64,000 nucleotides of DNA from Candidatus Woesearchaeota archaeon (GCA_964530955.1 CAZHCL010000002.1:7412-71411); one strand, 5' to 3'. Shown: positions 1 through 33,914, numbered from the stretch's first letter. Notes: generated from the letters alone by a model not told the origin. Numbers and translations are program-made.

Positions 1-149
1 AAACTTTAAGAACAGGTTTTGAAGAAAAAAGTGTTCATAACAAAGCTGGAGTAATTTATGCCGGTAGTAAAATAGTTAGGGTAGCAAATGGCACAAAGAA
101 AGAATTGTGTACCCTAGATCTGAAACAGGCAATGGAGGCAAAAAAATGA
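1..149 (+). CDS. 3' end of an upstream gene (partial), hypothetical protein
   Basis: Open in frame 3 from the window edge (..GVIYAGSKIVRVANGTKKELCTLDLKQAMEAKK*). The TGA at 147-149 overlaps the next ATG at 146 (ATGA). A GGAGG lies at 134-138 inside its 3' end. Confidence 0.5.
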   Translation, partial: TLRTGFEEKSVHNKAGVIYAGSKIVRVANGTKKELCTLDLKQAMEAKK

Positions 150-646
150 CCATTAACAAAATCTTAATCGCAGATGACAAAGAAGAAAACAGAAAAGCTG
201 CACTGCAAGCATTTCCTTTTGCAGATTGTGCATCTAGTGCAAAGCAAGCTCTCGAATTACTTGCATCGCATGATTATGACTTGGTCTTAACAGATATGCA
301 GATGGAGAAAGAAAATTCTGGTCTAGAAGTTATTGCGATGTCTCTAAGAAAAAGCATTTTGTGTTACACTATTTCAAACGCAGGTTTAAATCATGGTGTT
401 GAAAGCATTGAAGTAACCCCATATATTGATAATATTCAATACTCAAAGGGCAAAGCAAATCCAGAGACTTGGAAATATGTTCTTGAATTAATATCAAACG
501 CAAAAGGATCGCATAAGTCCTACCAGGAAGTTCTATCAAAAATAAAAGGTAATTCAAAATCTAGCAAAGACCCATTAACAAATATTCCAGATGTAGTGAT
601 TACTGCATTGTATGCTCCTTGGAATACAAGAAGAAAAGCAAAATGA
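146..646 (+). CDS. Stand-alone response-regulator receiver (CheY-like REC) protein
   Basis: KILIADDKEENRK...DLVLTDMQM gives the acidic pair plus a phospho-acceptor Asp. I prefer the ATG at 146 (ATGA overlap with the upstream stop, GGAGG SD) over the track's non-ATG start at 107. Confidence 0.8.
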   Translation: MTINKILIADDKEENRKAALQAFPFADCASSAKQALELLASHDYDLVLTDMQMEKENSGLEVIAMSLRKSILCYTISNAGLNHGVESIEVTPYIDNIQYSKGKANPETWKYVLELISNAKGSHKSYQEVLSKIKGNSKSSKDPLTNIPDVVITALYAPWNTRRKAK

Positions 647-1011
647 CAAGTAGAATACTGATAGGTGACGATAACGAGCAAATAAGGAAATCCTTAGCAA
701 GGACTCTAAAGTTAAGAAAGCTGGAAACAGATTTAGCAAGTACTCCTGAAGAGGTAATCAGAAAGGCAAAAGCAAATAATTATTCAGCAATCATAACTGA
801 TTTAGAATATACTGAAGGCGGAAGAGAAGGATATGAAGTTCTGAGACAGATAAAAGAAACTCCATCAGTTAAAATTCTTTACACGGGACAAATAGGATTT
901 GAATTTTTGGCAGAAGGTCTTGCTAACGGAGCAGACTACGTTGTTCTTAGGAAAGAGATATCGCAATTAACTGAAGTTTTGGATAAAATAATTAGGGGGA
1001 AAATGAAATGA
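643..1011 (+). CDS. Stand-alone response-regulator receiver (CheY-like REC) protein
   Basis: RILIGDDNEQIRK...AIITDLEY...KILYTGQ...VVLRK gives DD/D/T/K receiver residues. The ATG at 643 overlaps the previous TGA (ATGA); the track start at 619 is TTG. Confidence 0.85.
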   Translation: MTSRILIGDDNEQIRKSLARTLKLRKLETDLASTPEEVIRKAKANNYSAIITDLEYTEGGREGYEVLRQIKETPSVKILYTGQIGFEFLAEGLANGADYVVLRKEISQLTEVLDKIIRGKMK

Positions 1012-2117
1012 CAAAACAACTAAACAAAAATTTACAAACAAGACGGCAACAATTATCAAATGAAAGAAGTAGATTGATAAGGTTAAATGATAAAATATGC
1101 GAAGATGAACGGATCTGGAAGCGTTTGAATATTCGGAATGTTCAAAAAAGAACATTAGGGCAGTATTTTCAAGGAGATCTAGAAAAAGAATTAACTGACT
1201 ATGTAGATTTTATTTATGATTTTACCATAAATCGCTCAAAAATGGGCACATCAAATGCAGATCGTAATAAGTACGAAAAAATGTATCAAAATAAAAGTCA
1301 ACTTGATAGTAAATTACATAAACACACACTGGCATTATTTAGGACAATAAGAAAAGCACCTGAGCCGGACAGACTTATATTGGCTCATGCGATTGGTCCG
1401 GCATTTCATTTTAATCTTGGGTCTAGTATAGACTTGGAATATATTTTCGGAGAAGTAAGATATAGTGACGGGGATATGGTTTTTAATGCTGAAAAGAGAC
1501 TAAAAATCCTAAAATTAGATCATCTTGTTGACTGGAGCCCAAAGGGAAATAGTAATTACAGTGCGGGTATTCCACATGATAAAGTCAAGGAAATTTATCA
1601 TTCTTGTTCGCACCTATCACGTGAATCAATCGAAACCAAAAGAAAACAACTGCAAGAAAGCAATGTAATATTGGAACAACAGGAAAAAGAATTAAAAACT
1701 GAGTTAAAATATAATGAACTTGCCCAATCTTTAAAAGTCCCCGCTCGAAAACTTAAACAAAGAATGCCTACATTAATGGAAGATTTAGGGCTTATTGAAA
1801 GAGATGTTGGAAGCGGGGTTCAGGAACTGGCTGTTGATCCAGATACGAATACTATTGTTACTATTTCTGATCGCTCAGTAATAGGTAGAGGTTGCGGTCA
1901 TGACAAAATTGTTTCTGCATATAGAGATGGTTCAATTACTCGAAGAACATATTCATATAGAGATCCTGACAGCTGGGAGAGAGACAGACCAGAATATAGC
2001 TTTAACAAAGTAGAAATAGTTCGTGCTGATGACAAAAGCGTAAATGCTAGACTTTCAAGTAACAGTTACACCGAAAATGTAGAATTTAATTTTGGCGGAA
2101 ACGGGAGAGCAAAATAA
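1008..2117 (+). CDS. Hypothetical protein (369 aa), coiled-coil-like N-terminal and central segments, no family recognised
   Basis: Long ORF with an ATGA overlap to the upstream REC gene and an AGGGGGA SD-like motif upstream. No recognisable motif. Confidence 0.7.
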   Translation: MTKQLNKNLQTRRQQLSNERSRLIRLNDKICEDERIWKRLNIRNVQKRTLGQYFQGDLEKELTDYVDFIYDFTINRSKMGTSNADRNKYEKMYQNKSQLDSKLHKHTLALFRTIRKAPEPDRLILAHAIGPAFHFNLGSSIDLEYIFGEVRYSDGDMVFNAEKRLKILKLDHLVDWSPKGNSNYSAGIPHDKVKEIYHSCSHLSRESIETKRKQLQESNVILEQQEKELKTELKYNELAQSLKVPARKLKQRMPTLMEDLGLIERDVGSGVQELAVDPDTNTIVTISDRSVIGRGCGHDKIVSAYRDGSITRRTYSYRDPDSWERDRPEYSFNKVEIVRADDKSVNARLSSNSYTENVEFNFGGNGRAK

Positions 2118-2446
2118 TGGGAAGCTTTGAAGAAGAATATTTCAGATATTCTCCAAAATATGGCTCTAAAATTGCGGACAAGTATATTACATATTCAGAG
2201 AAAAATCCAATTAAAGAAAATGCAACCTTAGCTGAAAGAATGGAACATATGGGTGGCTTTTGTAAGTTATCTAAGCTAGAACGTCCCGCTACATTTTTAG
2301 AAATCGAACAGAAGAGAGATGAAACTAAAATGGGGCATCTTAGACATTATGCTGCTGCAGCAATTATGATAAGAGGAGAAAGCGTGCCAGTATCCCCTAT
2401 ACTAAGAGAAAAGATAAAAGCAAGAATGAGAAGGAAGGCCAAATGA
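2117..2446 (+). CDS. Hypothetical protein (109 aa)
   Basis: TAATG overlap with the upstream gene (2115-2119) and ATGA overlap with the downstream gene. No family recognised. Confidence 0.6.
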   Translation: MGSFEEEYFRYSPKYGSKIADKYITYSEKNPIKENATLAERMEHMGGFCKLSKLERPATFLEIEQKRDETKMGHLRHYAAAAIMIRGESVPVSPILREKIKARMRRKAK

Positions 2447-3570
2447 CCTGCCTTTTTGAGAGAATAGTGGATGGAAGGATGAGGTTCGCAGAAAGAATAG
2501 AAGAAAGAGCAAGGCAGTTATTAACCGGTTATATTGAAAGGGATTTTGAGTCTCTTGTGGCGCAACCACTCCAAAATCCTTCTAAGAAACCGTATTTTCA
2601 GGAGAAATACAAGAAGATTGAGGGAAATAGATTTTCATGGAATGCTCTTAAAAATATTGAAGATATAGCAGGAGTTTCAACAATTGATCATTCCAGTATT
2701 TTTGGGTCTTTGAAACAAATATCTGCGTGTGTTGATGGTTATAACGGTCAATTGTTAGAAGCGGCTGCTTCTATTCCTGCCATTTATATGGATAAAACTT
2801 CTGGTATAGAACCAAATTGTGTTGGAGCCTCGCAAATTATTGCTTCGTTATATTCATTTAAGAAACCCATGAGTAATCTGGAAATGCTTTTTATCTTATC
2901 ATCAAGAAGAAGAGATAATCTGTTAAAATATTTAAGAGAATTCGACACGTTACCTACAGAAAGATCAGGTTATCAAGAATATGTCGAACTAAAAGTTGAT
3001 TCATTTAGCGGGCATTTTCCAAAAAAAGAAGCAAGAGACAAATTGCTTGATGCAGCTTTGCAGATAGAAGATACCGGTCATGTTGCAGTAAGAAAGAAAG
3101 GCGGAGAAATCTTTGATTTTGAAATTGAAAGAAATAATTTCAAGAATGTGGAAATCTGTCCAATTCAGGAAGGGATTTGGGCTTCGGCTGTTTGCAATCT
3201 AGTAAGCCTTTACAATTACCTCGGATTTGATTCTGAAAATCAGTGGAAAAAAGTTTCAGGAAAAGTAGAATCAATCAGTTCAGGATTGGCTGCAATGATT
3301 AATTATTCATTAGGCATTGGGAATTTTAACAAATTGCAGACAATATTCGGAGAAGATTTGCCTTCAAGATATTACATGGCTGAGATGGCAAAACGCAGAA
3401 CAGACCTTCAATTCAATAGCGCCGCGATTCAACAGATACAAAATACCTATGTCCATACCGAAGCCCTTAAAATCGTTGGAAAAAAGTATCTCTCTGAAGA
3501 AGACTATTCTATTTTAATTGGTTCTCTGGATTCTAGGATATTTCAATCGCCATTAAGGAGATTAAAATGA
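2443..3570 (+). CDS. Hypothetical protein (375 aa), no family recognised
   Basis: Long ORF, translationally coupled on both sides by ATGA overlaps. Confidence 0.7.
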   Translation: MTCLFERIVDGRMRFAERIEERARQLLTGYIERDFESLVAQPLQNPSKKPYFQEKYKKIEGNRFSWNALKNIEDIAGVSTIDHSSIFGSLKQISACVDGYNGQLLEAAASIPAIYMDKTSGIEPNCVGASQIIASLYSFKKPMSNLEMLFILSSRRRDNLLKYLREFDTLPTERSGYQEYVELKVDSFSGHFPKKEARDKLLDAALQIEDTGHVAVRKKGGEIFDFEIERNNFKNVEICPIQEGIWASAVCNLVSLYNYLGFDSENQWKKVSGKVESISSGLAAMINYSLGIGNFNKLQTIFGEDLPSRYYMAEMAKRRTDLQFNSAAIQQIQNTYVHTEALKIVGKKYLSEEDYSILIGSLDSRIFQSPLRRLK

Positions 3571-3731
3571 TAAACAAACAGTTCACAATCACAAAAAGAA
3601 TCGCAAAGCATGGAAAGCAAGCCATAATTGTTATTCCTAGACTGATTGAAGAACATCTAAAACCTGGAACGATTGTTGAACTAAAGATTGAAATCTTACA
3701 AGAAACTGAGACCTTGCCTATTCTCTCTTAG
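3567..3731 (+). CDS. Small AbrB/SpoVT-like (swapped-hairpin) DNA-binding protein, 54 aa, not in the ORF track
   Basis: Manual translation: MINKQFTITKRIAKHGKQAIIVIPRLIEEHLKPGTIVELKIEILQETETLPILS*. The pattern K.G...I.IP......L.PG..V resembles AbrB/VapB-type domains. The ATG overlaps the upstream TGA (ATGA at 3567-3570). Confidence 0.5.
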   Translation: MINKQFTITKRIAKHGKQAIIVIPRLIEEHLKPGTIVELKIEILQETETLPILS

Positions 3732-4219
3732 AGCGCCCAAACATTCAGTGAAGGAAGAATGCCAAATATGACCAAGAGTATTATAAAGAACAAATCTTTC
3801 AAGATTCTTGATTTTAGTTTATCCTTGCTTTCCACCACTTCAAATGCAGAATAAGTTATTGCCATTAATATGTTTAGGCTGAAAAAAATCATTCCGATTT
3901 TAACGCTGACAAGGGTTGATAGCAATATTCCAACTACACTTAAAAGAAAACTATATCCTATTGTAAAAGTTATGTATCCAAACTTATCCCACATTTTAGG
4001 TCTCCTAGTATAAGCGAGCTTTGTTCTTGCAAAAACGGAACTTAAAAAGAAAGGAATAGCTATGCTCAATTCTGTTGCCAAAAGAAAATTACTTTGAAGA
4101 ATCTTAGAATTTATAGCAATGATAAATGTAAAAAGTGAGAAACATGTTCCCAAAAAAGAAAGATTTATTTTACTTCTTTCACTCGATTTACTCTTCCTTA
4201 TATCTTCCTCTTTAAGCAT
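3728..4219 (-). CDS. Hypothetical integral membrane protein (about 4 TM)
   Basis: Four hydrophobic stretches; no motif recognised. Confidence 0.6.
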   Translation of the reverse strand: MLKEEDIRKSKSSERSKINLSFLGTCFSLFTFIIAINSKILQSNFLLATELSIAIPFFLSSVFARTKLAYTRRPKMWDKFGYITFTIGYSFLLSVVGILLSTLVSVKIGMIFFSLNILMAITYSAFEVVESKDKLKSRILKDLFFIILLVIFGILPSLNVWAL

Positions 4220-4257
4220 AATAATATATAGATTTTAGGTTTATATTCCTTTTGAGA

Positions 4258-4752
4258 TTAAACACGTCTCCCACGCTTGCCACCCTTCTTCTTAGGACCG
4301 CCACGCGCAACTCTTGTTGTTTCAAGAATATTAATTACTCTAAATCCGCTCTTGCTTAAGCTCTTTATTGCTGCATGAGCTCCAGAACCAAGACCAATAC
4401 TTCCTGTCTTCGCTCTCATTCTAACATAAAGCGCATTAATTCCGAGGTCCTTTGCTCTTTCAGCTGCCTTTTTAGCAACGAACATTGCAACAGTGGCGTC
4501 TGCTTTCAATCTTGAATGTTTAGTTACCATTCCACCAGTTACCCTTGCAAGAGTATTTCCAGCCAAGTCAGTAATATGCACCATTGTATTGTTAGAAGAA
4601 CTATAAATGTAAGCGATTCCTGCTCTCTCTTCTTTTTTCTCTTTAACTTCTTCCTCTTTAGCAGGTTCAACAACTTTTTCAGATTCTTTTGCAACAACCT
4701 TCTCTTCCTGTTTAACTTCAGCTACTGCTTCGGTCTTTATTTTCTCTACCAT
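4258..4752 (-). CDS. rps11: 30S ribosomal protein S11 (uS11) with K/E-rich N-terminal extension
   Basis: GIAYIYSSSNNTMVHITDLAGNTLARVTGGM...KSGFRVINILETTRVARGGPKKKGGKRGRRV. Confidence 0.95.
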   Translation of the reverse strand: MVEKIKTEAVAEVKQEEKVVAKESEKVVEPAKEEEVKEKKEERAGIAYIYSSSNNTMVHITDLAGNTLARVTGGMVTKHSRLKADATVAMFVAKKAAERAKDLGINALYVRMRAKTGSIGLGSGAHAAIKSLSKSGFRVINILETTRVARGGPKKKGGKRGRRV

Positions 4753-4753
4753 T

Positions 4754-5269
4754 TTACTTCGCTACCTCCGCAGGAACAGCAATAGGTTCAGCAGCAACTT
4801 CTGCCTTAGGCTTCTTAACCTTTGCTTTAACTCTTAGTGAAATCGAATTCTCCTCCGCAACCGGAACGATGTAGCTTGGGCTGTTAACAACGTTATTATT
4901 TATAAGAACATTTTTATGAGCTACAAACTGTCTTGCCTGCTGAGGTGTCTTTGCAAGTCCTTTCCTAAATAATATGTAAGGCAATCTTCTTTCAAGGAAG
5001 TTTTCAATCTTAAGAGCAAGTACATCTGCAATTGAATCAACTTTTATTCCTAGAGAAGTTAATTTACCAAAAAGAATCTTCTGCTCTTCCATAGATGCTT
5101 TTGCAAGATCTTTAGCTCTTGACCTGTAATAATCGACCTTAGCATCGACTTTCCAAACTTCTCTCTTACTCTTCAAAGCATATTTTTTCTTGAGATTATT
5201 TTCCTCTTCAATTCTGACCTTCTCATACATTTTCTTAGGTCTTACATAAAGTTTCTTTTTCCTTATCAT
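4754..5269 (-). CDS. rps4: 30S ribosomal protein S4 (uS4)
   Basis: RKKKLYVRPKKMYEKVRIEEENNLKKKYALKSKREVWK plus an S4 RNA-binding domain. ATGA overlap with the S13 stop. Confidence 0.95.
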   Translation of the reverse strand: MIRKKKLYVRPKKMYEKVRIEEENNLKKKYALKSKREVWKVDAKVDYYRSRAKDLAKASMEEQKILFGKLTSLGIKVDSIADVLALKIENFLERRLPYILFRKGLAKTPQQARQFVAHKNVLINNNVVNSPSYIVPVAEENSISLRVKAKVKKPKAEVAAEPIAVPAEVAK

Positions 5270-5802
5270 TTCTTAGTGCGCTTTACCCCCATCGCTACTC
5301 CCTTCTTTCTGAAGTGTGACCTTGTTCTCTGTCCTCTTACTGGAAGCTTCAAAGCATGTCTCAATCCACGATAACTCTTTATCTCTCTAAGTCTCTTAAT
5401 ATCAAATTCTTTCTTTATATCAAGGTCAGAGCCAAGATAATGTTTTGTCTCTCCCGTTTCAACATCAGAGCGCCTATTCTTAAGAAAATCAGCTACATTA
5501 AGATTGTGAAAAAACTTTTCTATTTCCTGTATCTCTGGCTTTGAAAGATCAGAGATTTTCTTTGATTTTGGCATGTTAAGTTTTATGCAAGCAGCATTTG
5601 AAATAGACCATGAAATTCCTTTTATTCTTGTTAATCCAGTAATTAGATTCTTTGAACCAGGTATGTCATATCCCAAAATTCTTATAAGAAATTCTCCCTT
5701 GTCTTCCTGCTGATAAGCTGCTTTCTTTTCTGCCTTTGCTAATACACTCTCAGGCTTTTTCTTATCCTGTTTCTCCTTGTTATCTTGTTTCTTTTCTGCC
5801 AT
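5266..5802 (-). CDS. rps13: 30S ribosomal protein S13 (uS13) with K-rich N-terminal extension
   Basis: IRILGYDIPGSKNLITGLTRIKGI...RGLRHALKLPVRGQRTRSHFRK. Confidence 0.95.
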   Translation of the reverse strand: MAEKKQDNKEKQDKKKPESVLAKAEKKAAYQQEDKGEFLIRILGYDIPGSKNLITGLTRIKGISWSISNAACIKLNMPKSKKISDLSKPEIQEIEKFFHNLNVADFLKNRRSDVETGETKHYLGSDLDIKKEFDIKRLREIKSYRGLRHALKLPVRGQRTRSHFRKKGVAMGVKRTKK

Positions 5803-5803
5803 T

Positions 5804-6346
5804 TTATTTTACAAAAAGATAAAACCTCTGCCTTTCAGTCAATTCCTCCAAAAGCCTTTTCTCAATCGCTTTCTTCGGATCCGGCATGTTCTTTACCCTT
5901 TCCTTTATGTCATCAAAAGACGAGAATTCTTTTTCTTCCCGCGCCTTTAATACCTCTTCAGTGTGCTTCTTTCCAAAACCTGGAAGCAGTTCGAGTTGAT
6001 GCATTCTGGTATTTATTGCCTGAGCGTGGTTGAAGAAATCTAAAAATTTCTTTTCCTGCTCCGCAACCACCATCTCGATATGTTCCTGTAGTTGGATCTT
6101 CGCAGCTTCAGTAAGCTTTTCTTTCGAAAGCCTTCCTGCAATGAAGTATATCTTATCTCTCTTATCTGGGCCTATATAAACTTTTTCTTTTACAGCAAGA
6201 TTTATTCCCCTTCTTGGAACAAGCTCAAGAAGAGAAAGACTCTTCTCTCCGATAGCCTGTGCTATAGGAGTCATCCTTCCACCAGCTACAGGATAGCCGT
6301 AAGGCAAGTAATCTAGTATTATTGCATAATCTTCTTTTTCGGTCAT
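5804..6346 (-). CDS. DUF655/COG1491-type OB-fold + helix-hairpin-helix nucleic-acid-binding protein
   Basis: AIILDYLPYGYP...LELLPGFGKKHTEEVLKARE. Sits in the conserved archaeal position after L21e-RpoF. Confidence 0.8.
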   Translation of the reverse strand: MTEKEDYAIILDYLPYGYPVAGGRMTPIAQAIGEKSLSLLELVPRRGINLAVKEKVYIGPDKRDKIYFIAGRLSKEKLTEAAKIQLQEHIEMVVAEQEKKFLDFFNHAQAINTRMHQLELLPGFGKKHTEEVLKAREEKEFSSFDDIKERVKNMPDPKKAIEKRLLEELTERQRFYLFVK

Positions 6347-7205: not shown

Positions 7206-7430
7206 ATGGTTAAAATAAAAATAGAAAGAAAAGGCTATTTCTGGTCAGGAATAGCTATTTTAGCCTTGCTAATTCTAACCTATATTGTAAAATTTCCAGC
7301 AGATGCAGGCAGCAATTTCATTACCTATGATTCTTTACTCGGAATTATCATTTTTCATAACCCCTTCATTCTTGCAGTTTACCTGATAATAGCAATAAAA
7401 TTAATTATGAATGGCTTGAAAAAGAAATGA
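7206..7430 (+). CDS. Small membrane protein (2 TM), hypothetical
   Basis: Two hydrophobic helices. A TATA-like GTATTTAAATATT lies about 30 nt upstream. Confidence 0.5.
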   Translation: MVKIKIERKGYFWSGIAILALLILTYIVKFPADAGSNFITYDSLLGIIIFHNPFILAVYLIIAIKLIMNGLKKK

Positions 7431-7476
7431 AAACAAAATTCACAAGCTTTAAATAATCTAAAAATCTGCAAAACCA

Positions 7477-8280
7477 ATGACTGAAGAAACTCCCAAAAGT
7501 GAATCAATAACTATTAAGAAAGAGAGTCTCTGGAAATATTCTACGTTTATACTTGTTGCAATACTGATTGTTGGAGCATTTATTTTCTTCAGAAGCGGAA
7601 CTACAAGCGGAAATGCAGTTAATACTGGAAACACTGCAGGAAATGCTGCTGCGGGAGCAGCGACAGGGCCTGTAGATGTAAGCGCCTTCACAGGTAATTC
7701 TGATATATTCCCATCCATAGGACCAGCAAATGCACCAGCAACGGTTATTGAGTTTGCAGACTTCCAATGCCCCTACTGCGCTCTAGCTTCAGGGCAAGCA
7801 ACCTGGGCAAGCCAATATAGTCAATATTCTGATTTAATTAATGCTGGAGGAAAAGCAGAAAAATTGGCTCAAGCAGGCAAGATAAAATTCATATTCGTTA
7901 CAATGAACTTCCTTGACCAAGGAAAAATAGGCGAGTCAAACTGGGCTGCAGAAGCAGCTTATTGCGCAAATGACCAAGGTAAATTCTGGGAAATGCATGA
8001 TGCTATTTACAAAGCAAGCGACGGACCAAGTGAGGATAATGGCAAGTATGCCAAGGCAAAATTGGAAACAATCGCACAAAGTATTTCAGGATTAGACCAG
8101 ACTAAGTTCAAGAGTTGCCTTGAAAGCGATGCAGACCTAAGCAAGGTTCAGCAATCTCAGCAGGCAGCAAGTGCAGTCGTACAGGGAACACCAACCTTCT
8201 TCGTAAATGGCCAGCAGGTCAATGCAGGATGGTCCACAATATCTGCAGCATTACAAAGTGCTGGTGTAAGTACAAATTAA
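7477..8280 (+). CDS. Membrane-anchored DsbA-like thiol:disulfide oxidoreductase (thioredoxin fold)
   Basis: N-terminal TM, VIEFADFQCPYCA active site, GTPTFFVNGQ cis-Pro loop. Confidence 0.8.
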   Translation: MTEETPKSESITIKKESLWKYSTFILVAILIVGAFIFFRSGTTSGNAVNTGNTAGNAAAGAATGPVDVSAFTGNSDIFPSIGPANAPATVIEFADFQCPYCALASGQATWASQYSQYSDLINAGGKAEKLAQAGKIKFIFVTMNFLDQGKIGESNWAAEAAYCANDQGKFWEMHDAIYKASDGPSEDNGKYAKAKLETIAQSISGLDQTKFKSCLESDADLSKVQQSQQAASAVVQGTPTFFVNGQQVNAGWSTISAALQSAGVSTN

Positions 8281-8285
8281 AAGAA

Positions 8286-8867
8286 TTAAATTTTATCCTT
8301 ATTTTTTATAAATCTAATAAGCTCTTTACTTATGAGTGGTTTTCCATTTACTAAATTATATCTATAAGGCAACTGTGTAGACTGTATTTTATCAATTTTA
8401 ATTTCGACATTATCCTGAAATTTTAATTCACCAAGTTTCTTTCCAGATAATATCCTCTTAACAGTATAAACTGCATTATCCGTGCTCATTTGCTCCTTTC
8501 CTATATCGAATCTCTTTACATCAGGCAAGAACTTTGACAGCTCATCCTTTGTCCTTTTTTTAGGAGGATAATCGCCCAAAATCCCGCCAAAAATAAAGTA
8601 ATCATATTTGGAAGAATTACTAGGACTTAGAGTCTCATCTGCCTCAGGGTCAAGTATGCAAGAATTACTCAAGCCCATATCTCTAACAGATTCCAAAAAG
8701 ACTTTCCCTAACCCTACAAGCTTTTTCCTATCCTTTTCTTTTATATTGGTAAACCAAAGATTCTTTTTTCCAACAATCTTAGAAATATGCTTGTATTCAA
8801 TTAAGCACCAAGGCCATAACTCTGGTTCAAGATGCTCTATAACATATATCCTGTTCTTAACTTGCAT
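8286..8867 (-). CDS. SPOUT-class methyltransferase of the DUF431/Sfm1 family
   Basis: YVIEHLEPELWPW..EY, YDYFIFGGILGDYPPKKRT, IGKEQMSTDNAV and LPYRY match my recollection of yeast Sfm1-type proteins. Confidence 0.75.
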   Translation of the reverse strand: MQVKNRIYVIEHLEPELWPWCLIEYKHISKIVGKKNLWFTNIKEKDRKKLVGLGKVFLESVRDMGLSNSCILDPEADETLSPSNSSKYDYFIFGGILGDYPPKKRTKDELSKFLPDVKRFDIGKEQMSTDNAVYTVKRILSGKKLGELKFQDNVEIKIDKIQSTQLPYRYNLVNGKPLISKELIRFIKNKDKI

Positions 8868-8903
8868 ATAAATTAAAGAAAAAGTTATTTTATAAATCCG
8901 TTG

Positions 8904-9152
8904 CTAGACCTTTGTCTGAGATTCAGCAGGAGAAGGCTCTTCCAAATCCTTTTCATCAACTGAATTTATTGCTGCCTTGAATATCTTGAATTTATCAGAA
9001 GGTATTCGCAGTCCAGACTTTGTAAACCCTGTATATCTCTCAGATTTAACAAATTCCCTTATGGTCAGACCCCTATGACCTCCAAAGTCATCAATCCTTA
9101 TTACTATATCCGTATCAGCACTTTTCTCTATCCTGTCTATGTCTTTCTCCAT
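8904..9152 (-). CDS. PC4/p15-like ssDNA-binding transcriptional coactivator domain protein
   Basis: IVIRIDDFGGHRGLTIREFVKSERYTGFTKSGLRIPSDKFKIF follows the PC4 C-terminal domain pattern (v.f.G....dIRE%....ptkkGi.l....w). Confidence 0.65.
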   Translation of the reverse strand: MEKDIDRIEKSADTDIVIRIDDFGGHRGLTIREFVKSERYTGFTKSGLRIPSDKFKIFKAAINSVDEKDLEEPSPAESQTKV

Positions 9153-9230
9153 TAAATAATAAGGACGTCAAATTATATAAATATATCCAAATATCAAGGT
9201 AAAGGATATAAACGACCATATCTTGCAAAA

Positions 9231-10169
9231 ATGATGAAATCAATAAAAATAGGTAATATTAAACTAAAAAATAAACTTTTCCTAGCTCCAATGGTTGACG
9301 TGACTGACTTGGCTTATCGTTTAATATGCAGGAAAGCAGGAGCAGGCATGGCCTATACGGAAATGCTCTATGTAGATGCAATAACCCATGAAAATGAGAA
9401 AACTCAAAAGCTAATGAAGACTTCCAAAGAAGACAAACCAGTTGGAATCCAAGTAACAGGGAATAATGTCTCTGAATTTGAAAAAGCAATTAAAATGAAA
9501 GTCTTTGAAAAATATAATCTAGTTGATATTAACTGTGGATGCCCTAGCATAAGAATAACTGGAAATCAAGCAGGCTCTTTCTTACTAAAAAATCCTGATA
9601 AAATTTCAGGGATGATTAAAACACTTAAGAATTCAGGTTATACCACAACTGCAAAAATAAGACTTGGATTCGAAAACAATAACGTTATGAAAGTTGCAAA
9701 GAGTATTGAAAAAGCAGGAGCAGATGCATTAACAATTCATGCAAGGCTCGCAACACAAGGAACAGGCACAAAGGCAGACTGGAAGTGGATTCAGGAAGCA
9801 AAAAAAGAAATTGGAATTCCAGTAATTGGAAATGGAGATATTTTTTCTGGCAAAGATACAGAAAGAATGCTTGAAATTGCTGATGGAGCCATGATTGCAA
9901 GAGCAGCCATTGGAGACCCGCACATTTTTGAAAGAATTTCATTCTATCTTAAAACTGGAAAAGAAAGAGAAAGAAATTTCAAAAAGAATATTGATTATTT
10001 CAAAAAATACCTCTACCTAGCAAAAAAACATGACATTATAGATATTCCAAGAATAAAATATCTCGGAACAAATTTCCTGAGAAATAAAGAAGGCGCCGCA
10101 AAACTAAGAAATGAATTAATGCAAAAAAAGGATTTCAATGAAATTCAGGATTTCATTAGGAATATTTAG
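9231..10169 (+). CDS. dus: tRNA-dihydrouridine synthase
   Basis: LAPMVDVTDLAYRLICRKAGAGMAYTEM, DINCGCP, TIHARL. Confidence 0.9.
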   Translation: MMKSIKIGNIKLKNKLFLAPMVDVTDLAYRLICRKAGAGMAYTEMLYVDAITHENEKTQKLMKTSKEDKPVGIQVTGNNVSEFEKAIKMKVFEKYNLVDINCGCPSIRITGNQAGSFLLKNPDKISGMIKTLKNSGYTTTAKIRLGFENNNVMKVAKSIEKAGADALTIHARLATQGTGTKADWKWIQEAKKEIGIPVIGNGDIFSGKDTERMLEIADGAMIARAAIGDPHIFERISFYLKTGKERERNFKKNIDYFKKYLYLAKKHDIIDIPRIKYLGTNFLRNKEGAAKLRNELMQKKDFNEIQDFIRNI

Positions 10170-10840: not shown

Positions 10841-12163
10841 CTAATACCTTCTTCCTCTTCCGCCGTAACTTCTACCTCTAGAACTAGAACCATACCTGCT
10901 TCTTCCACCCCTATCTCCGCTATCTCCTCCCTCTCTGCCATGGCTTCTGTTATCACTTCCTCCACGATTGCCTCTGTAGCCCCCATGTCCTCCGCCTCTG
11001 CTGCCGTAACTTCTTCCTCCTCTTCTATCCTGATCAAAACTGATGTAGACCTTCTTAACATCTTCAGGAACTGGCTCCTGCTGAATTTTCAAACTATCAT
11101 CTCTGAGCACATTTCTAAAGTTATCATAATCTCTCTGTGATAAAATAGTAATTGCAATTCCATCTTTGCCAGCTCTTGCTGTTCTGCCTATTCTATGAAT
11201 ATACTCTGAACTTGTCTTTGGACTATCGTAATTGTAAACATGAGAAACATTCTTTATATCCAAACCACGAGCAGCCACATCAGTGCAAACAAGAACAAAA
11301 ACGCTCTGAGATTTGAAATAATCAAGTATTCTGTTTCTCTTTTGCTGTGTAAGACCTCCGTGAATAGCAGTTGCTTCAATACCTTGTTTGCTTAAATTAT
11401 TAGCAACAAAATCAGCATTGATTCTAGTATTACAGAAAACCATAACCAATCCTGCTTTTTCTTTCTTAAGTAAATGAACTAGCAAAGAGAACTTTATTTC
11501 TTTTGGAGCATCATAATAAACCTGTTTCAATAATGAAGGGTCAACATAAGATTCAACAGATACCTGAACCGGATTGTTCATGTACTTCTTTGCCAATCTT
11601 TCAATATCTGGAGAAATTGTTGCTGAGAAAAGCATTGTCTGTCTTTGTTTAGGACAGGCAGATATAATTCTCTCCACATCTTCTATAAAACCCATATCCA
11701 ACATTCTATCGGCCTCATCAAGAACAAGAATATTCAAATGCTTAAGGTCAATAGTTCCCCTTTGCAAATGGTCTAATATTCTTCCAGGAGTTCCAACAAC
11801 TACCTCTGCAGTCTCCAAATCAGAAACTTGAGGACCTATTCCAACTCCACCATAAATAATAGAGACTTCCAATTTCTTGAAAGTAGAAAAATGATGCATA
11901 ACTTTCCCAACCTGCTCGGCTAATTCACGCGTAGGAGTTAGAATAAGGGCTTGAATACCTTTTCCTTTTTCAGAATGCTCAATAATACTTGAACCAAAAG
12001 CAAGAGTCTTACCGCTTCCCGTTGCAGAACCACCGATAATATCTTTCTTGGCAAGTGCTAAAGGTATTGTCTTTTCCTGTATTTCGCTCGGCTCAGTGAA
12101 CTTTGCCTCTTGAATTATTTTTATGAGGGGTTCTGATAAGCCTAATTTTCTAAAGCTTTCCAT
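10841..12163 (-). CDS. DEAD-box ATP-dependent RNA helicase with RGG/RG-rich C-terminal tail
   Basis: Q-motif region, GSATGSGKTLAF, VLDEADRMLDMGF, FSAT, HRIGRTARAG. The last ~70 aa are R/G/S/Y-rich. Confidence 0.95.
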   Translation of the reverse strand: MESFRKLGLSEPLIKIIQEAKFTEPSEIQEKTIPLALAKKDIIGGSATGSGKTLAFGSSIIEHSEKGKGIQALILTPTRELAEQVGKVMHHFSTFKKLEVSIIYGGVGIGPQVSDLETAEVVVGTPGRILDHLQRGTIDLKHLNILVLDEADRMLDMGFIEDVERIISACPKQRQTMLFSATISPDIERLAKKYMNNPVQVSVESYVDPSLLKQVYYDAPKEIKFSLLVHLLKKEKAGLVMVFCNTRINADFVANNLSKQGIEATAIHGGLTQQKRNRILDYFKSQSVFVLVCTDVAARGLDIKNVSHVYNYDSPKTSSEYIHRIGRTARAGKDGIAITILSQRDYDNFRNVLRDDSLKIQQEPVPEDVKKVYISFDQDRRGGRSYGSRGGGHGGYRGNRGGSDNRSHGREGGDSGDRGGRSRYGSSSRGRSYGGRGRRY

Positions 12164-31932: not shown

Positions 31933-32451
31933 TTAAAGATGAGCCATTCTTAAAAGCGAGCTAAATAATCCTGCTCTACGCTCATTAGTTGCTCTTTCTG
32001 AAAAAGGCTGAGAAGAGTTAGTTAATCTTCCAAAGTCGGGAGCAATTTCATCAGAATGCAAAAGTCTTGCATCTCTGGGAAAATCCCAATAAATTACTTC
32101 TTCAGTCACAGCATTGCCGTCTTTGAAATGAAGAGGAAAGGACTTGCCGTTCCTTGGATAATATGATAAAAATCTTTCAAGAATAAAACCAGCTTTCTGA
32201 AAGTCAGGAAGAGGGCCAGAGGGCCTAAGTATTCCATCTTGGTCAATATCATAAAAGCCAGGAATTAATCGTGTTACATCAAAATCAGAAACTTGAGAAG
32301 AAAGAGCCACCGCAGCACGATAAACCTTGCCATTCAGATCAGAGGATTGATTATCTAAAAAACGATCAACATTGTCGTAAGGAATAATCCTTAAACATAC
32401 AAACCGCCTAAGTATTGATTCTTGGGACACTATTACTAAGAAGATTTCCAT
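31933..32451 (-). CDS. Hypothetical protein
   Basis: ORF only. I prefer the ATG at 32451; the track start at 32481 is TTG. Confidence 0.5.
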   Translation of the reverse strand: MEIFLVIVSQESILRRFVCLRIIPYDNVDRFLDNQSSDLNGKVYRAAVALSSQVSDFDVTRLIPGFYDIDQDGILRPSGPLPDFQKAGFILERFLSYYPRNGKSFPLHFKDGNAVTEEVIYWDFPRDARLLHSDEIAPDFGRLTNSSQPFSERATNERRAGLFSSLLRMAHL

Positions 32452-32519
32452 ATTTAAACATATATGTAATAAAAAAGACAAATCAGATAAGTTTTAAAGA
32501 AAGAACGCTATTACTAAAT

Positions 32520-33002
32520 ATGAAAAAATTAAACAACTGGCAGAATTCTCTATACAATATAATAATCATTCTGAAAGGAGTTAATGGAATATTCGAACTT
32601 ATTCTTGGAACCCTAATAGCTATAATTAGTTCATCGACAGTCTATAAAATAGCCATAAAAATATTCAGTGAAGAGCTTTCTGATGACCCTCATGATTTTG
32701 TAGCAAACTTCTTCGTGAACCTAGCGAGAGACCTTTCTTTTAGCACAAAAGAGTTTATAGCAGCCTACGTTTTCATTCATGGAATAATTAATATTCTACT
32801 TTTCTATACTCTCTGGAAGAAGAAATTTGAGTTTTATCCTACTGCAATCATCACTTTAGTTTTGCTTACAGTATATCAGATATTTAGAGTTATCACAAAG
32901 CATTCACCTCTATTGATTTTAATCACAATAATAGATTTTGTAATAATTTACTTCCTAGTTAGGGAGTATCGTTTAGCTTTAAGAGAAAAAAGAAAACAGT
33001 AA
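32520..33002 (+). CDS. DUF2127-like membrane protein
   Basis: MKKLNNWQNSLYNIIIILKGVNGIFELILG.. fits the DUF2127 pattern. I chose the ATG at 32520 because the track's upstream extension overlaps the divergent gene. Confidence 0.55.
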   Translation: MKKLNNWQNSLYNIIIILKGVNGIFELILGTLIAIISSSTVYKIAIKIFSEELSDDPHDFVANFFVNLARDLSFSTKEFIAAYVFIHGIINILLFYTLWKKKFEFYPTAIITLVLLTVYQIFRVITKHSPLLILITIIDFVIIYFLVREYRLALREKRKQ

Positions 33003-33464: not shown

Positions 33465-33914
33465 TTAAGAAAGTTTAAAAAGGTTTAACTGATAATCTAA
33501 TTCCTTCTGACTCTCAGGACAATGAATTCCACAATAAACAAAAGTAACATTTCCATGTTTCAGGTTGTAATCAGCAGACAACCCAAATTCAGATCTTAAT
33601 GAATCATCATTTTGTTTTTGATATCTGATAAAATTGCCCTTATCTTCATTCAAACGTTTTAGAGTATTGCCTTTTTTACTCTTCACAAGCAAAACTATGA
33701 ACTCTTTACCGAATGAATGTTTACTGTATCCATCGATATATGTTTGTATTTCTTCAGCAGTAAATTCTGAATATATTTTTCTTGCATAACTTAGCCAATC
33801 GGAATAACTCTTTTCAAATAAAATAAGATAACCTTTGTTCCCAAGAGATTTCTTCACACTTTCTATTTTACCAATAACTTCTGGCTTTACAATTACTAAA
33901 GATACATCTTCCAT
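33465..33914 (-). CDS. Divergent nucleoside-diphosphate-kinase-like protein
   Basis: SLVIVKPEVIG..., SLRSEFG, YCGIHCPES, LNLF are spaced as in NDK (l.iKPD.v, tiRgdfg, N..HGSDS, i..wF) but are strongly diverged. Confidence 0.4.
   Translation of the reverse strand: MEDVSLVIVKPEVIGKIESVKKSLGNKGYLILFEKSYSDWLSYARKIYSEFTAEEIQTYIDGYSKHSFGKEFIVLLVKSKKGNTLKRLNEDKGNFIRYQKQNDDSLRSEFGLSADYNLKHGNVTFVYCGIHCPESQKELDYQLNLFKLS

Follow-up and report, generated by a model that had tools for sequence, protein, structure and literature searches.

What do receiver proteins control in an archaeon when their genes overlap genes of no described family? This question is raised by an operon at the 5' edge of a 64,000-nt stretch of DNA from a Candidatus Woesearchaeota archaeon (GCA_964530955.1, CAZHCL010000002.1:7412-71411; the whole stretch is called the window below). 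The operon encodes two receivers of 166 and 122 aa (REC166 and REC122), followed by proteins of 369, 109, 375 and 54 aa. The initial annotation had read this block as a phosphorelay-controlled effector module of an undescribed kind. Our analysis showed that the host is a low-GC, DPANN-type archaeon and that the conserved heart of the operon is the pair formed by the genes for the 109- and 375-aa proteins (the 109-375 pair). We propose, with a probability of roughly 40%, that the operon is a thiol enzyme module that is built around this pair and gated by a phospho-signal. The operon, the receiver pockets and the proteins without a family are retained from the earlier interpretation, whereas the receivers proved to be accessory to the pair and the full gene string was found in this genome only.

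Conservation of the 109-375 pair

Relatives were found by an exhaustive phmmer search of 1.84 billion representatives with the concatenated 369-, 109- and 375-aa proteins as the query. The 375 family accounted for approximately 18 of the representatives found and the 109 family for five, and a further four were distant relatives of the 369-aa protein. Word-indexed searches with the 375-aa protein, with the 738-aa protein that begins the operon and with a profile of the 375 family returned essentially the queries themselves. A GTDB genome scan returned one species representative only, and a scan of viral contigs returned no relatives.

The 109 homologue was adjacent to, upstream of and co-oriented with the 375 homologue in all 15 independent archaeal loci with a visible upstream side, and this adjacency was kept at 375 identities to the window protein as low as approximately 17%. 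A REC166-type receiver adjoined the pair in seven of the 15 loci. It lay directly upstream of the 109 gene in the window and in L008, L010 and L011 (L numbers denote our loci and contigs) and one gene away from it in L006; in L016 and L023, receivers directly followed the 375 gene. Elsewhere the core was joined to E1/JAB/AAA+ or MoxR/VWA genes in place of receivers. Locus L003, from a Nanoarchaeota metagenome-assembled genome, contained genes for a PAN-like AAA+ protein, a JAB protein, a ThiF/E1 protein and three paralogous proteins in one overlapping operon with the pair. Locus L023 had AAA+ and JAB-like genes with ThiF immediately upstream of the 109 homologue and a receiver of 256 aa (REC256) downstream. 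The pair was accompanied by a large AAA protein and a VWA-like protein in L018 and, in L024, by a MoxR-type AAA_5 gene, a CobT_C/VWA-like gene and three Ocnus/PHPT1-like genes downstream. Loci L009, L013 and L017 placed it amid unrelated or housekeeping genes, such as those for lysyl-tRNA synthetase (LysRS) and polyprenyl synthase in L013. The genes for class I LysRS, a GatB_N and Asparaginase pair, Alba, S17e and CDC48 on these contigs, which mostly have a low GC content, place the family in the archaea.

The string REC-REC-369-109-375-AbrB described in the initial annotation does not recur as a seven-gene unit, but its sub-modules do. The 109-375 order in all 15 loci, the receivers beside the pair in seven, and the receivers found with 369-like proteins (see below) indicate that the linkage is not idiosyncratic to this genome.

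The 375 family is highly divergent, with a median pairwise identity of 27% in a 22-sequence alignment. Only five residues are invariant among the 22 sequences: P112, C126, H213, D225 and G244. In the window, Cys126 (in the motif EPNCVG) is encoded at 2818-2820, His213 at 3079-3081 and Asp225 at 3115-3117. An AlphaFold2 model of the 375-aa protein, based on a 17-sequence alignment, reached a mean predicted local distance difference test (pLDDT) score of 91.2 and a predicted template modelling (pTM) score of 0.89. The model consists of an N-terminal helical bundle, an alpha/beta core and a C-terminal helical repeat. In its core, helix 126-137 begins with C126 and strand 213-218 with H213, and D225 lies in the next loop. 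The order Cys-His-Asp with a Cys at a helix start and a His at a strand start is typical of papain-like and transglutaminase-like thiol enzymes. The 375-aa protein is not featureless; we infer that it works like a thiol hydrolase or transferase, with no assignment to a peptidase family, and the 375 family is a candidate for a new thiol-enzyme fold.

The 375-aa protein shares with the C39, LapG-type bacterial transglutaminase-like cysteine proteinase and NlpC/P60 families the Cys-His-Asp order, the helix-start Cys, the strand-start His and an Asp approximately 12 residues later, and these three residues are its only polar invariant ones. It differs from them in having an insert of approximately 85 residues with extra strands and helices between Cys and His, and helical-bundle or TPR-like flanks, and no significant sequence or structure match to these families was obtained. 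Papain-fold matches to the model in Foldseek were non-significant (LapG, E=3.8; phage NlpC/P60, E=0.78). No Pfam family was matched by 17 members of the 375 family, and no peptidase family appeared even at E<1. Profile searches against the PDB with the full length and with the core found nothing, and the 375-aa protein had no match in NCBIfam, PADLOC or PHROGs.

The same libraries and the PDB sequences were searched with the 109- and 369-aa proteins, including a family profile of each against the PDB, and no match was found in Pfam, NCBIfam, PADLOC, PHROGs or PDB. The view in the initial annotation that the 369-, 109- and 375-aa proteins belong to no described family was thereby confirmed. The near-invariant residues of the 109 family are G16, C49, A79, I83 and R86 (alignment A3). 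Its members have a variable R-G-G or R-D-G segment approximately 22 residues from the C-terminus and no terminal GG.

Several of the related loci have features of their own. In L003, three tandem paralogues (272, 264 and 257 aa; 7315-9695) without a Pfam match lie between the ThiF/E1 gene and the 109-375 pair, and a 108-aa relative, also without a Pfam match, follows the 375 homologue at 11112-11438. These proteins could be E2, E3 or modifier parts of that system. In L007, the 375-family gene is split into open reading frames (ORFs) of 83 and 226 aa (8984-10085), and the 115-aa ORF upstream does not resemble the 109 family. The gene is probably decaying, and L007 is the sole locus without a recognisable 109 partner. 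The archaeal contig L017 carries the pair next to CDC48 and an amidotransferase pair (Pfam GatB_N and Asparaginase), which we take to be GatE/GatD-like. With a GC content of 57.7%, L017 shows that the family is not confined to low-GC DPANN genomes.

Operon structure, receivers and the PHPT1-like domain

Direct reading of the sequence located ATGA start/stop overlaps at 146-149, 643-646, 1008-1011, 2443-2446 and 3567-3570 and a TAATG junction at 2115-2119, all six exactly where the initial annotation had placed them. The translational coupling proposed there was upheld, whereas the number of seven genes was too low. The metagenome contig L001, which is 100% identical to window positions 1-3173 and reaches 7.4 kb further upstream, carries two additional ATGA-coupled genes, encoding 738 and then 192 aa. 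Since L001 completes the 192-aa ORF that is cut by the window edge and adds the overlapping 738-aa gene, the operon comprises eight genes with seven consecutive overlaps (Table 1). A 166-bp AT-rich intergenic region separates the 738-aa gene from a divergent upstream gene, and at the 3' end the stop codon of the 54-aa gene overlaps that of a convergent membrane-protein gene.

A GGAGG/AGGAG-like Shine-Dalgarno motif is located 6-10 nt 5' of each start codon, within the preceding gene. The positions of these motifs favour the ATG starts over longer GTG or TTG options and support translational coupling. The genome is compact, with a GC content of 34.5%, and by our own count from the ORF list the rest of the window has roughly 5-6 four-base overlaps per approximately 55 same-strand junctions, never in unbroken runs; seven in a row therefore far exceeds what chance would give for unlinked genes. 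All of the operon proteins are predicted to be soluble, their hydrophobic 19-mer scores never exceeding 1.3.

Both receivers scored above the Pfam Response_reg (PF00072) cut-off of 30.2 bits (Table 1). REC122 matched model positions 1-103, and REC166 matched only positions 1-62 of 111. REC166 consists of the N-terminal half of a receiver and a divergent C-terminal half with an extension of approximately 70 aa. It belongs to a distinct family, with members in L006, L008, L010, L011, L014, L016, L019 and L023, and is not the plain CheY-like protein that had been annotated. The acidic pair is D10-D11 in REC166 and D9-D10 in REC122, and the phospho-acceptors are D50 (293-295) and D53 (799-801), respectively. 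The equivalents of CheY D13 and D57 were invariant in nine of nine aligned receivers, and D12 was Asp or Glu. The alignment with CheY also gave plausible Ser/Thr residues at the end of beta4 (T80 in REC122; T75 or S77 in REC166). The receiver pockets are thus intact as regards the acidic pair and the phospho-acceptor Asp, and the annotated Thr is plausible; the annotated Lys switch was not found in register, as discussed below.

The two proteins share with the stand-alone CheY-like receivers of archaea (PF00072) the small receiver-only form, the acidic pocket and the phospho-acceptor Asp, and presumably also action by protein-protein contact, not DNA binding, which is the prevailing proposal for archaeal response regulators (PMC5847659). 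They differ from them in that their operon is not a che operon and has no histidine kinase or histidine phosphotransfer gene within approximately 71 kb, and in the half-model match and extension of REC166. In their census, Galperin et al. (2018) encountered no two-component system in any finished genome of the Nanoarchaeota (PMC5847659), and receivers in this lineage are therefore themselves unusual. DPANN archaea have tiny genomes, and two-component signalling is considered to be scarce or absent in them, so the recurring pairing of receivers with a putative enzyme offers a handle on what receivers do there and possibly a new class of output.

The statement that no histidine kinase is visible held for the window and the 7.4 kb upstream (approximately 71 kb): no H-box or G2-box motif was present in any of the six frames, and an EnvZ search gave no credible match. 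The operon proteins contain no HxxKG motif. An ORF at 31933-32481 (-) matched EnvZ in a small database (phmmer E=8e-5), but it has no Pfam family and the match was rejected as spurious. This ORF and another at 32415-33002 (+) overlap on opposite strands, and the minus-strand ORF is probably not a gene.

A 149-aa divergent protein resembling nucleoside-diphosphate kinases (NDKs) is encoded at 33465-33914 (-). Its sole PDB match was NME5 (E=0.34, residues 5-125), in which the segment NLKHG aligned with the active-site His motif of NDKs. NDKs autophosphorylate on His, and the 149-aa protein is on that account a speculative candidate for the phospho-His source of a system with receivers and a PHPT1-like domain and without a kinase.

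The upstream extension that yielded the 738- and 192-aa genes revealed no histidine kinase; it did reveal a known family. The C-terminal 90-100 or so residues of the 738-aa protein matched Pfam Ocnus/Janus (PF05005) with E=1.4e-4 over model positions 16-102 of 108. They also matched Ocnus-family proteins of L024 (phmmer E=3.7e-7), which carry precomputed confident PF05005 matches and are encoded by the three genes downstream of that distant 109-375 pair. When a four-sequence, archaeal-only profile was searched against the whole PDB, the human PHPT1 structures 2AI6, 2NMM and 2HW4 were the top matches (E=1.6e-4). Only profile methods made this connection: BLASTP of the 738-aa C-terminus against human PHPT1 and phmmer against the PDB found nothing. 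In an alignment with human PHPT1 (A8), whose sequence was checked against 2AI6, the catalytic His53 ('YH.DI'), the GG and the 'YG.A.H' motifs were aligned; H53, G76, G77, G92, S94, G98 and A100 were invariant, and an equivalent of H102 was present in four of five sequences. The domain is accordingly predicted from its sequence to be a PHPT1-like phosphohistidine phosphatase. It differs from PHPT1 in its archaeal origin, in its fusion to a helical region of approximately 640 residues, in its operon with receivers and in Arg78, which is not conserved in register. The domain, which is of a known family, was out of reach of the initial annotation, since the first gene of the operon lies upstream of the window. 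The N-terminal region of approximately 640 residues was all-helical in a single-sequence AlphaFold model of the 738-aa protein (pLDDT 43) and has no relatives; the 192-aa protein had no match in Pfam, PHROGs or the PDB sequences. The literature we found on PHPT1 concerns animals, and we found none that links PHPT1-type domains with receivers in prokaryotes or places them in a receiver operon. PHPT1-type domains near receivers would connect the receiver signalling of prokaryotes with an enzyme familiar from animals and would make the phospho-His carrier tractable.

In the 369-aa protein, a coiled-coil-like region at the N-terminus is combined with a conserved C-terminal domain rich in beta structure. 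The protein is a short member of a small family, with four distant relatives (P0022, P0028, P0030 and P0031; alignment A9). P0028, from L014, is a fusion of a receiver with a 369-like protein, and its gene is followed by a further REC166-like gene. In L019-21, a 177-aa receiver gene (REC177) is directly followed by that of a 461-aa 369-like protein. The 369-like proteins are thus fused or adjacent to a receiver in every locus with a visible upstream side (L014 and L019-21). Further candidates were discarded. The 396-aa protein of L014 and the 330-aa protein of L006 have no detectable relation to the 375 or 369 families, and the 112- and 362-aa genes of L019 resemble a 109-375 pair in size alone; they are unrelated, and the 362-aa protein is a nucleotidyltransferase.

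The 54-aa protein closes the operon, as the initial annotation had noticed, and its label of AbrB-like proved to be statistically weak. Its family has the motif 'ITKRIAKHGKQ..VIP....LKPG' (alignment A5). Only one of six family members, the 54-aa protein, matched Pfam MazE_antitoxin (PF04014; E=0.039, 14.3 bits against a cut-off of 24.7), and an hhalign comparison of the family with the AbrB N-domain of neighbouring AbrB-PhoU proteins gave E=0.086 and a probability of 0.7%. An AbrB/SpoVT-like DNA binder is a plausible guess, which the motif pattern alone fits. In L006, a member of the family occupies the same place behind the 375 homologue. The members usually precede kinase genes: Pkinase genes follow them three times in L003 and also in L006.

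The receivers and the PHPT1-like domain are thus members of known families; the 109, 375, 369-like and REC166-type families and their recurring linkage are undescribed in the libraries searched.

Proposed mechanism and alternative readings

In the phospho-gated module that we propose, Asp50 of REC166, Asp53 of REC122 or both would receive a phosphoryl group, the donor of which does not belong to the operon. The phosphorylation state of the receivers would alter the binding of REC166 to a 109-375 complex and to the 369-aa protein, perhaps relayed via REC122 and the 369-aa protein, and would thereby switch the thiol enzyme on or off. The substrate of the enzyme would probably be a protein; a hint of this comes from L003 and L023, where genes of the ThiF/E1, JAB-like and AAA+ types stand with the pair in tightly overlapping operons. 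The signal would be reset by the PHPT1-like domain at the end of the 738-aa scaffold, which would strip the phosphoryl group from the phospho-His donor, and the 54-aa protein may serve as a DNA-binding autoregulator.

Several results weigh against this proposal. Foldseek of the full 375 model found no neighbour at E<=0.001 (the best E values were 0.65 in the PDB and 0.2 in BFVD), and the thiol reading therefore rests on the identity, order and secondary-structure position of the residues. The single Cys, His and Asp of the 375-aa protein could bind a metal instead. The alignment with CheY placed the beta5 Lys out of register in both receivers: it is shifted in REC122 ('YVVLRK'), and a family-specific 'YSK' motif replaces it in REC166-like proteins. 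No phosphodonor for the receivers was found within approximately 71 kb. The PF05005 score of the PHPT1-like domain, 22.3 bits, is 0.7 bit below the curated cut-off of 23, and word-indexed and local locus searches found no whole-protein homologues of the 738- and 192-aa proteins. In addition, about half of the loci (L003, L009, L013, L017, L018 and L024) have no receiver, and control by receivers is therefore an accessory of the core and not its defining feature.

The exchange of accessories around a fixed core also suggests a conflict or defence module, which we regard as the main, though unlikely, alternative and one that is not exclusive of the phospho-gated enzyme. The 375-aa protein would be the effector (a thiol peptidase or toxin) and the 109-aa protein its inhibitor or immunity partner, in the manner of type II toxin-antitoxin systems; interchangeable regulators (REC/PHPT1, E1/JAB/AAA+, MoxR/VWA or an upstream kinase cassette) would arm the effector upon infection or host-symbiont conflict. 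The small-then-large overlapping gene order in all loci fits this idea and is shared with type II toxin-antitoxin pairs; the 54-aa protein has the 'G-x5-IP-x6-L-x2-G' look of a swapped-hairpin AbrB/MazE domain. The idea also fits the accessories that vary from locus to locus (AAA+/ThiF/JAB in L003 and L023, AAA/VWA-like in L018, and MoxR-type AAA_5 with CobT_C/VWA-like in L024) and the small ribbon-helix-helix (RHH) or AbrB-like gene with a kinase cassette upstream in four loci. Kaur et al. (2020) described highly regulated, NTPase-centred MoxR-vWA conflict systems with thiol-peptidase effectors, ubiquitin-like (Ubl)/E1/JAB components, receivers without histidine kinases and lineage-specific alpha-helical proteins (PMC7159879), which resemble the present set in their fixed core with interchangeable regulators, their predicted thiol-peptidase-like part and their lineage-specific helical proteins. 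However, genes for an NTPase, a vWA protein, E1 and JAB are missing from the window operon, Pfam and PADLOC do not place the 109 and 375 families among the components of such systems, and those systems are concentrated in multicellular bacteria, not in DPANN-type hosts. PADLOC and PHROG matches were limited to generic receiver similarity (PDC-M60B/C, E ~1e-4), no relatives were found in viral contigs, and several loci lie amid housekeeping genes (L013, and the ribosomal genes beside the window operon), with no integrases or other mobility marks seen. The 375-aa protein, with its helical repeat flanks, is rather big to be a toxin, the 109-aa protein has no recognised DNA-binding antitoxin fold, and searches gave no match to toxin or antitoxin families, the 54-aa protein falling below the Pfam threshold. 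The alternate wiring of the 109-375 core to REC/PHPT1, E1/JAB/AAA+ and MoxR/VWA genes nevertheless amounts to modular regulation that could bear on conflict between DPANN archaea and their hosts or viruses.

A bolder reading seems rather doubtful to us: an archaeal system of His/Asp signalling or protein modification, undescribed so far, may be centred on the 109-375 pair and work without a histidine kinase, in lineages that lack such kinases. The Cys-His-Asp enzyme, with a new fold, would then be the direct output of the receivers or even the partner that bears phospho-His. The PHPT1-type phosphatase, regarded as eukaryotic, would be the reset enzyme of this non-canonical pathway, a non-kinase such as the NDK-like protein could be the donor, and related genomes would have E1/JAB/AAA+ control in exchange for control by receivers.

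It is improbable that no functional unit exists beyond the pair, the other genes reflecting lineage-specific synteny and the 375-aa protein being a non-catalytic scaffold or metal binder. Such a reading would account for the full eight-gene string that is unique to this genome, for the 738- and 192-aa proteins without homologues and for the half of the loci that lack a receiver, and overlaps of four bases are no rarity in this genome. This reading is opposed by the recurrence of receivers on either side of the pair (L016 and L023) at 17-33% 375 identity, by the fusion of a receiver with a 369-like protein, by the independent recurrence of PHPT1-like domains in L024 and by the seven consecutive overlaps with embedded Shine-Dalgarno motifs, which enforce co-expression. 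Quite improbable, too, is a Ubl or peptide tagging system in which the 109-aa protein would be a modifier or precursor cleaved by the 375-aa protein near 'R-G-G / R-D-G', activated by an E1 where one is present and controlled by receivers here. The ThiF/E1 gene immediately upstream of the 109 homologue in L023, the E1, JAB and PAN-like AAA+ genes in the L003 operon and the Arg-x-Gly/Gly-Gly segment approximately 22 residues from the C-terminus of most 109 homologues are in its favour, as is the spacing of the 375 residues (Cys, approximately 87 residues, His, 12 residues, Asp), which is like that of C39-type double-glycine peptidases. However, the second Gly is not conserved (R-G-E in the window; R-G-A and T-D-S-G in others), the 109-aa protein is rich in helix-forming residues and has no beta-grasp or Pup similarity, the window operon has no E1, E2 or JAB gene, unlike L003 and L023, and the 375 family, as noted, matches no Pfam peptidase family. 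Finally, the presence of small receiver proteins, and nothing else, would fit accessory genes of chemotaxis, the archaellum or a pilus under CheY-like control. As had been stated in the initial annotation, no chemotaxis, archaellum or pilus part is visible: Pfam and NCBIfam searches matched no Che, Fla/Arl or pilus family in the operon proteins, their neighbours within the operon or the 7.4 kb upstream. The operon proteins are all soluble, the related loci pair with E1, JAB, AAA+, VWA and PHPT1-like genes, and the genes of the type II secretion system type in L019 are approximately 8 kb away on the other strand. We therefore reject this last reading as having next to no likelihood.

Feature coordinates and neighbouring genes

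Table 1. Coordinates of the operon genes and associated features (window positions unless a contig or locus is named).
Feature	Position	Strand	Basis or remark
738-aa gene (operon gene 1)	L001 4767-6983, upstream of window	+	C-terminal PHPT1-like domain
192-aa gene (operon gene 2), 3' end	1-149; partial ORF 3-149	+	complete on L001 6980-7558
REC166, atypical receiver	146-646	+	Pfam Response_reg, 32.1 bits
REC122, stand-alone full-length receiver	643-1011	+	Pfam Response_reg, 42.6 bits
369-aa protein, receiver-associated family	1008-2117	+	phmmer relatives; receiver fusion/adjacency
109-aa small protein, upstream partner of 375 family	2117-2446	+	15/15 independent loci
375-aa core protein, predicted thiol enzyme	2443-3570	+	22-sequence alignment and AlphaFold2 model
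54-aa small basic protein, last operon gene	3567-3731	+	family alignment
Lys-ending junction segments	140-149, 637-646, 1002-1011, 2109-2117, 2437-2446, 3561-3570; L001 6974-6983	+	sequence
Kinase cassette	L001 2357-4600; L003 117-2791, 14838-18075, 18173-21121; L006 3886-6833; L023 509-3218		ORF clustering

In four loci (L001, L003, L006 and L023), the 109-375 operon is immediately preceded by a recurrent cassette that points away from it. The cassette opens with a small gene for a DNA binder, which overlaps the start of a gene for a eukaryotic-type Ser/Thr kinase; the kinase gene in turn converges on an AbrB-PhoU gene of approximately 300 aa. In L001 and L023 the small gene encodes an RHH protein of 45-49 aa ('ISISVDEETL...'), and in L003 and L006 its product belongs to the 54-aa AbrB-like family. 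A stretch of 21 kb in L003 holds three copies of the cassette.

The window region 3728-6346 (-) begins with the convergent gene directly downstream of the operon, which encodes a 163-aa multi-pass membrane protein without a known family, and continues with the genes for the ribosomal proteins S11, S4 and S13, which were identified by eye from their translations. With no mobility genes between, the operon therefore borders core housekeeping genes.

All seven proteins that precede a junction in the operon end in Lys (..SKK, ..AKK, ..KAK, ..KMK, ..RAK, ..KAK and ..RLK). The last codon is fixed as AAA because an A-rich spacer is followed by the ATGA or TAATG overlap. The Shine-Dalgarno motif of each gene lies within the codons for the C-terminal residues of the protein before it.

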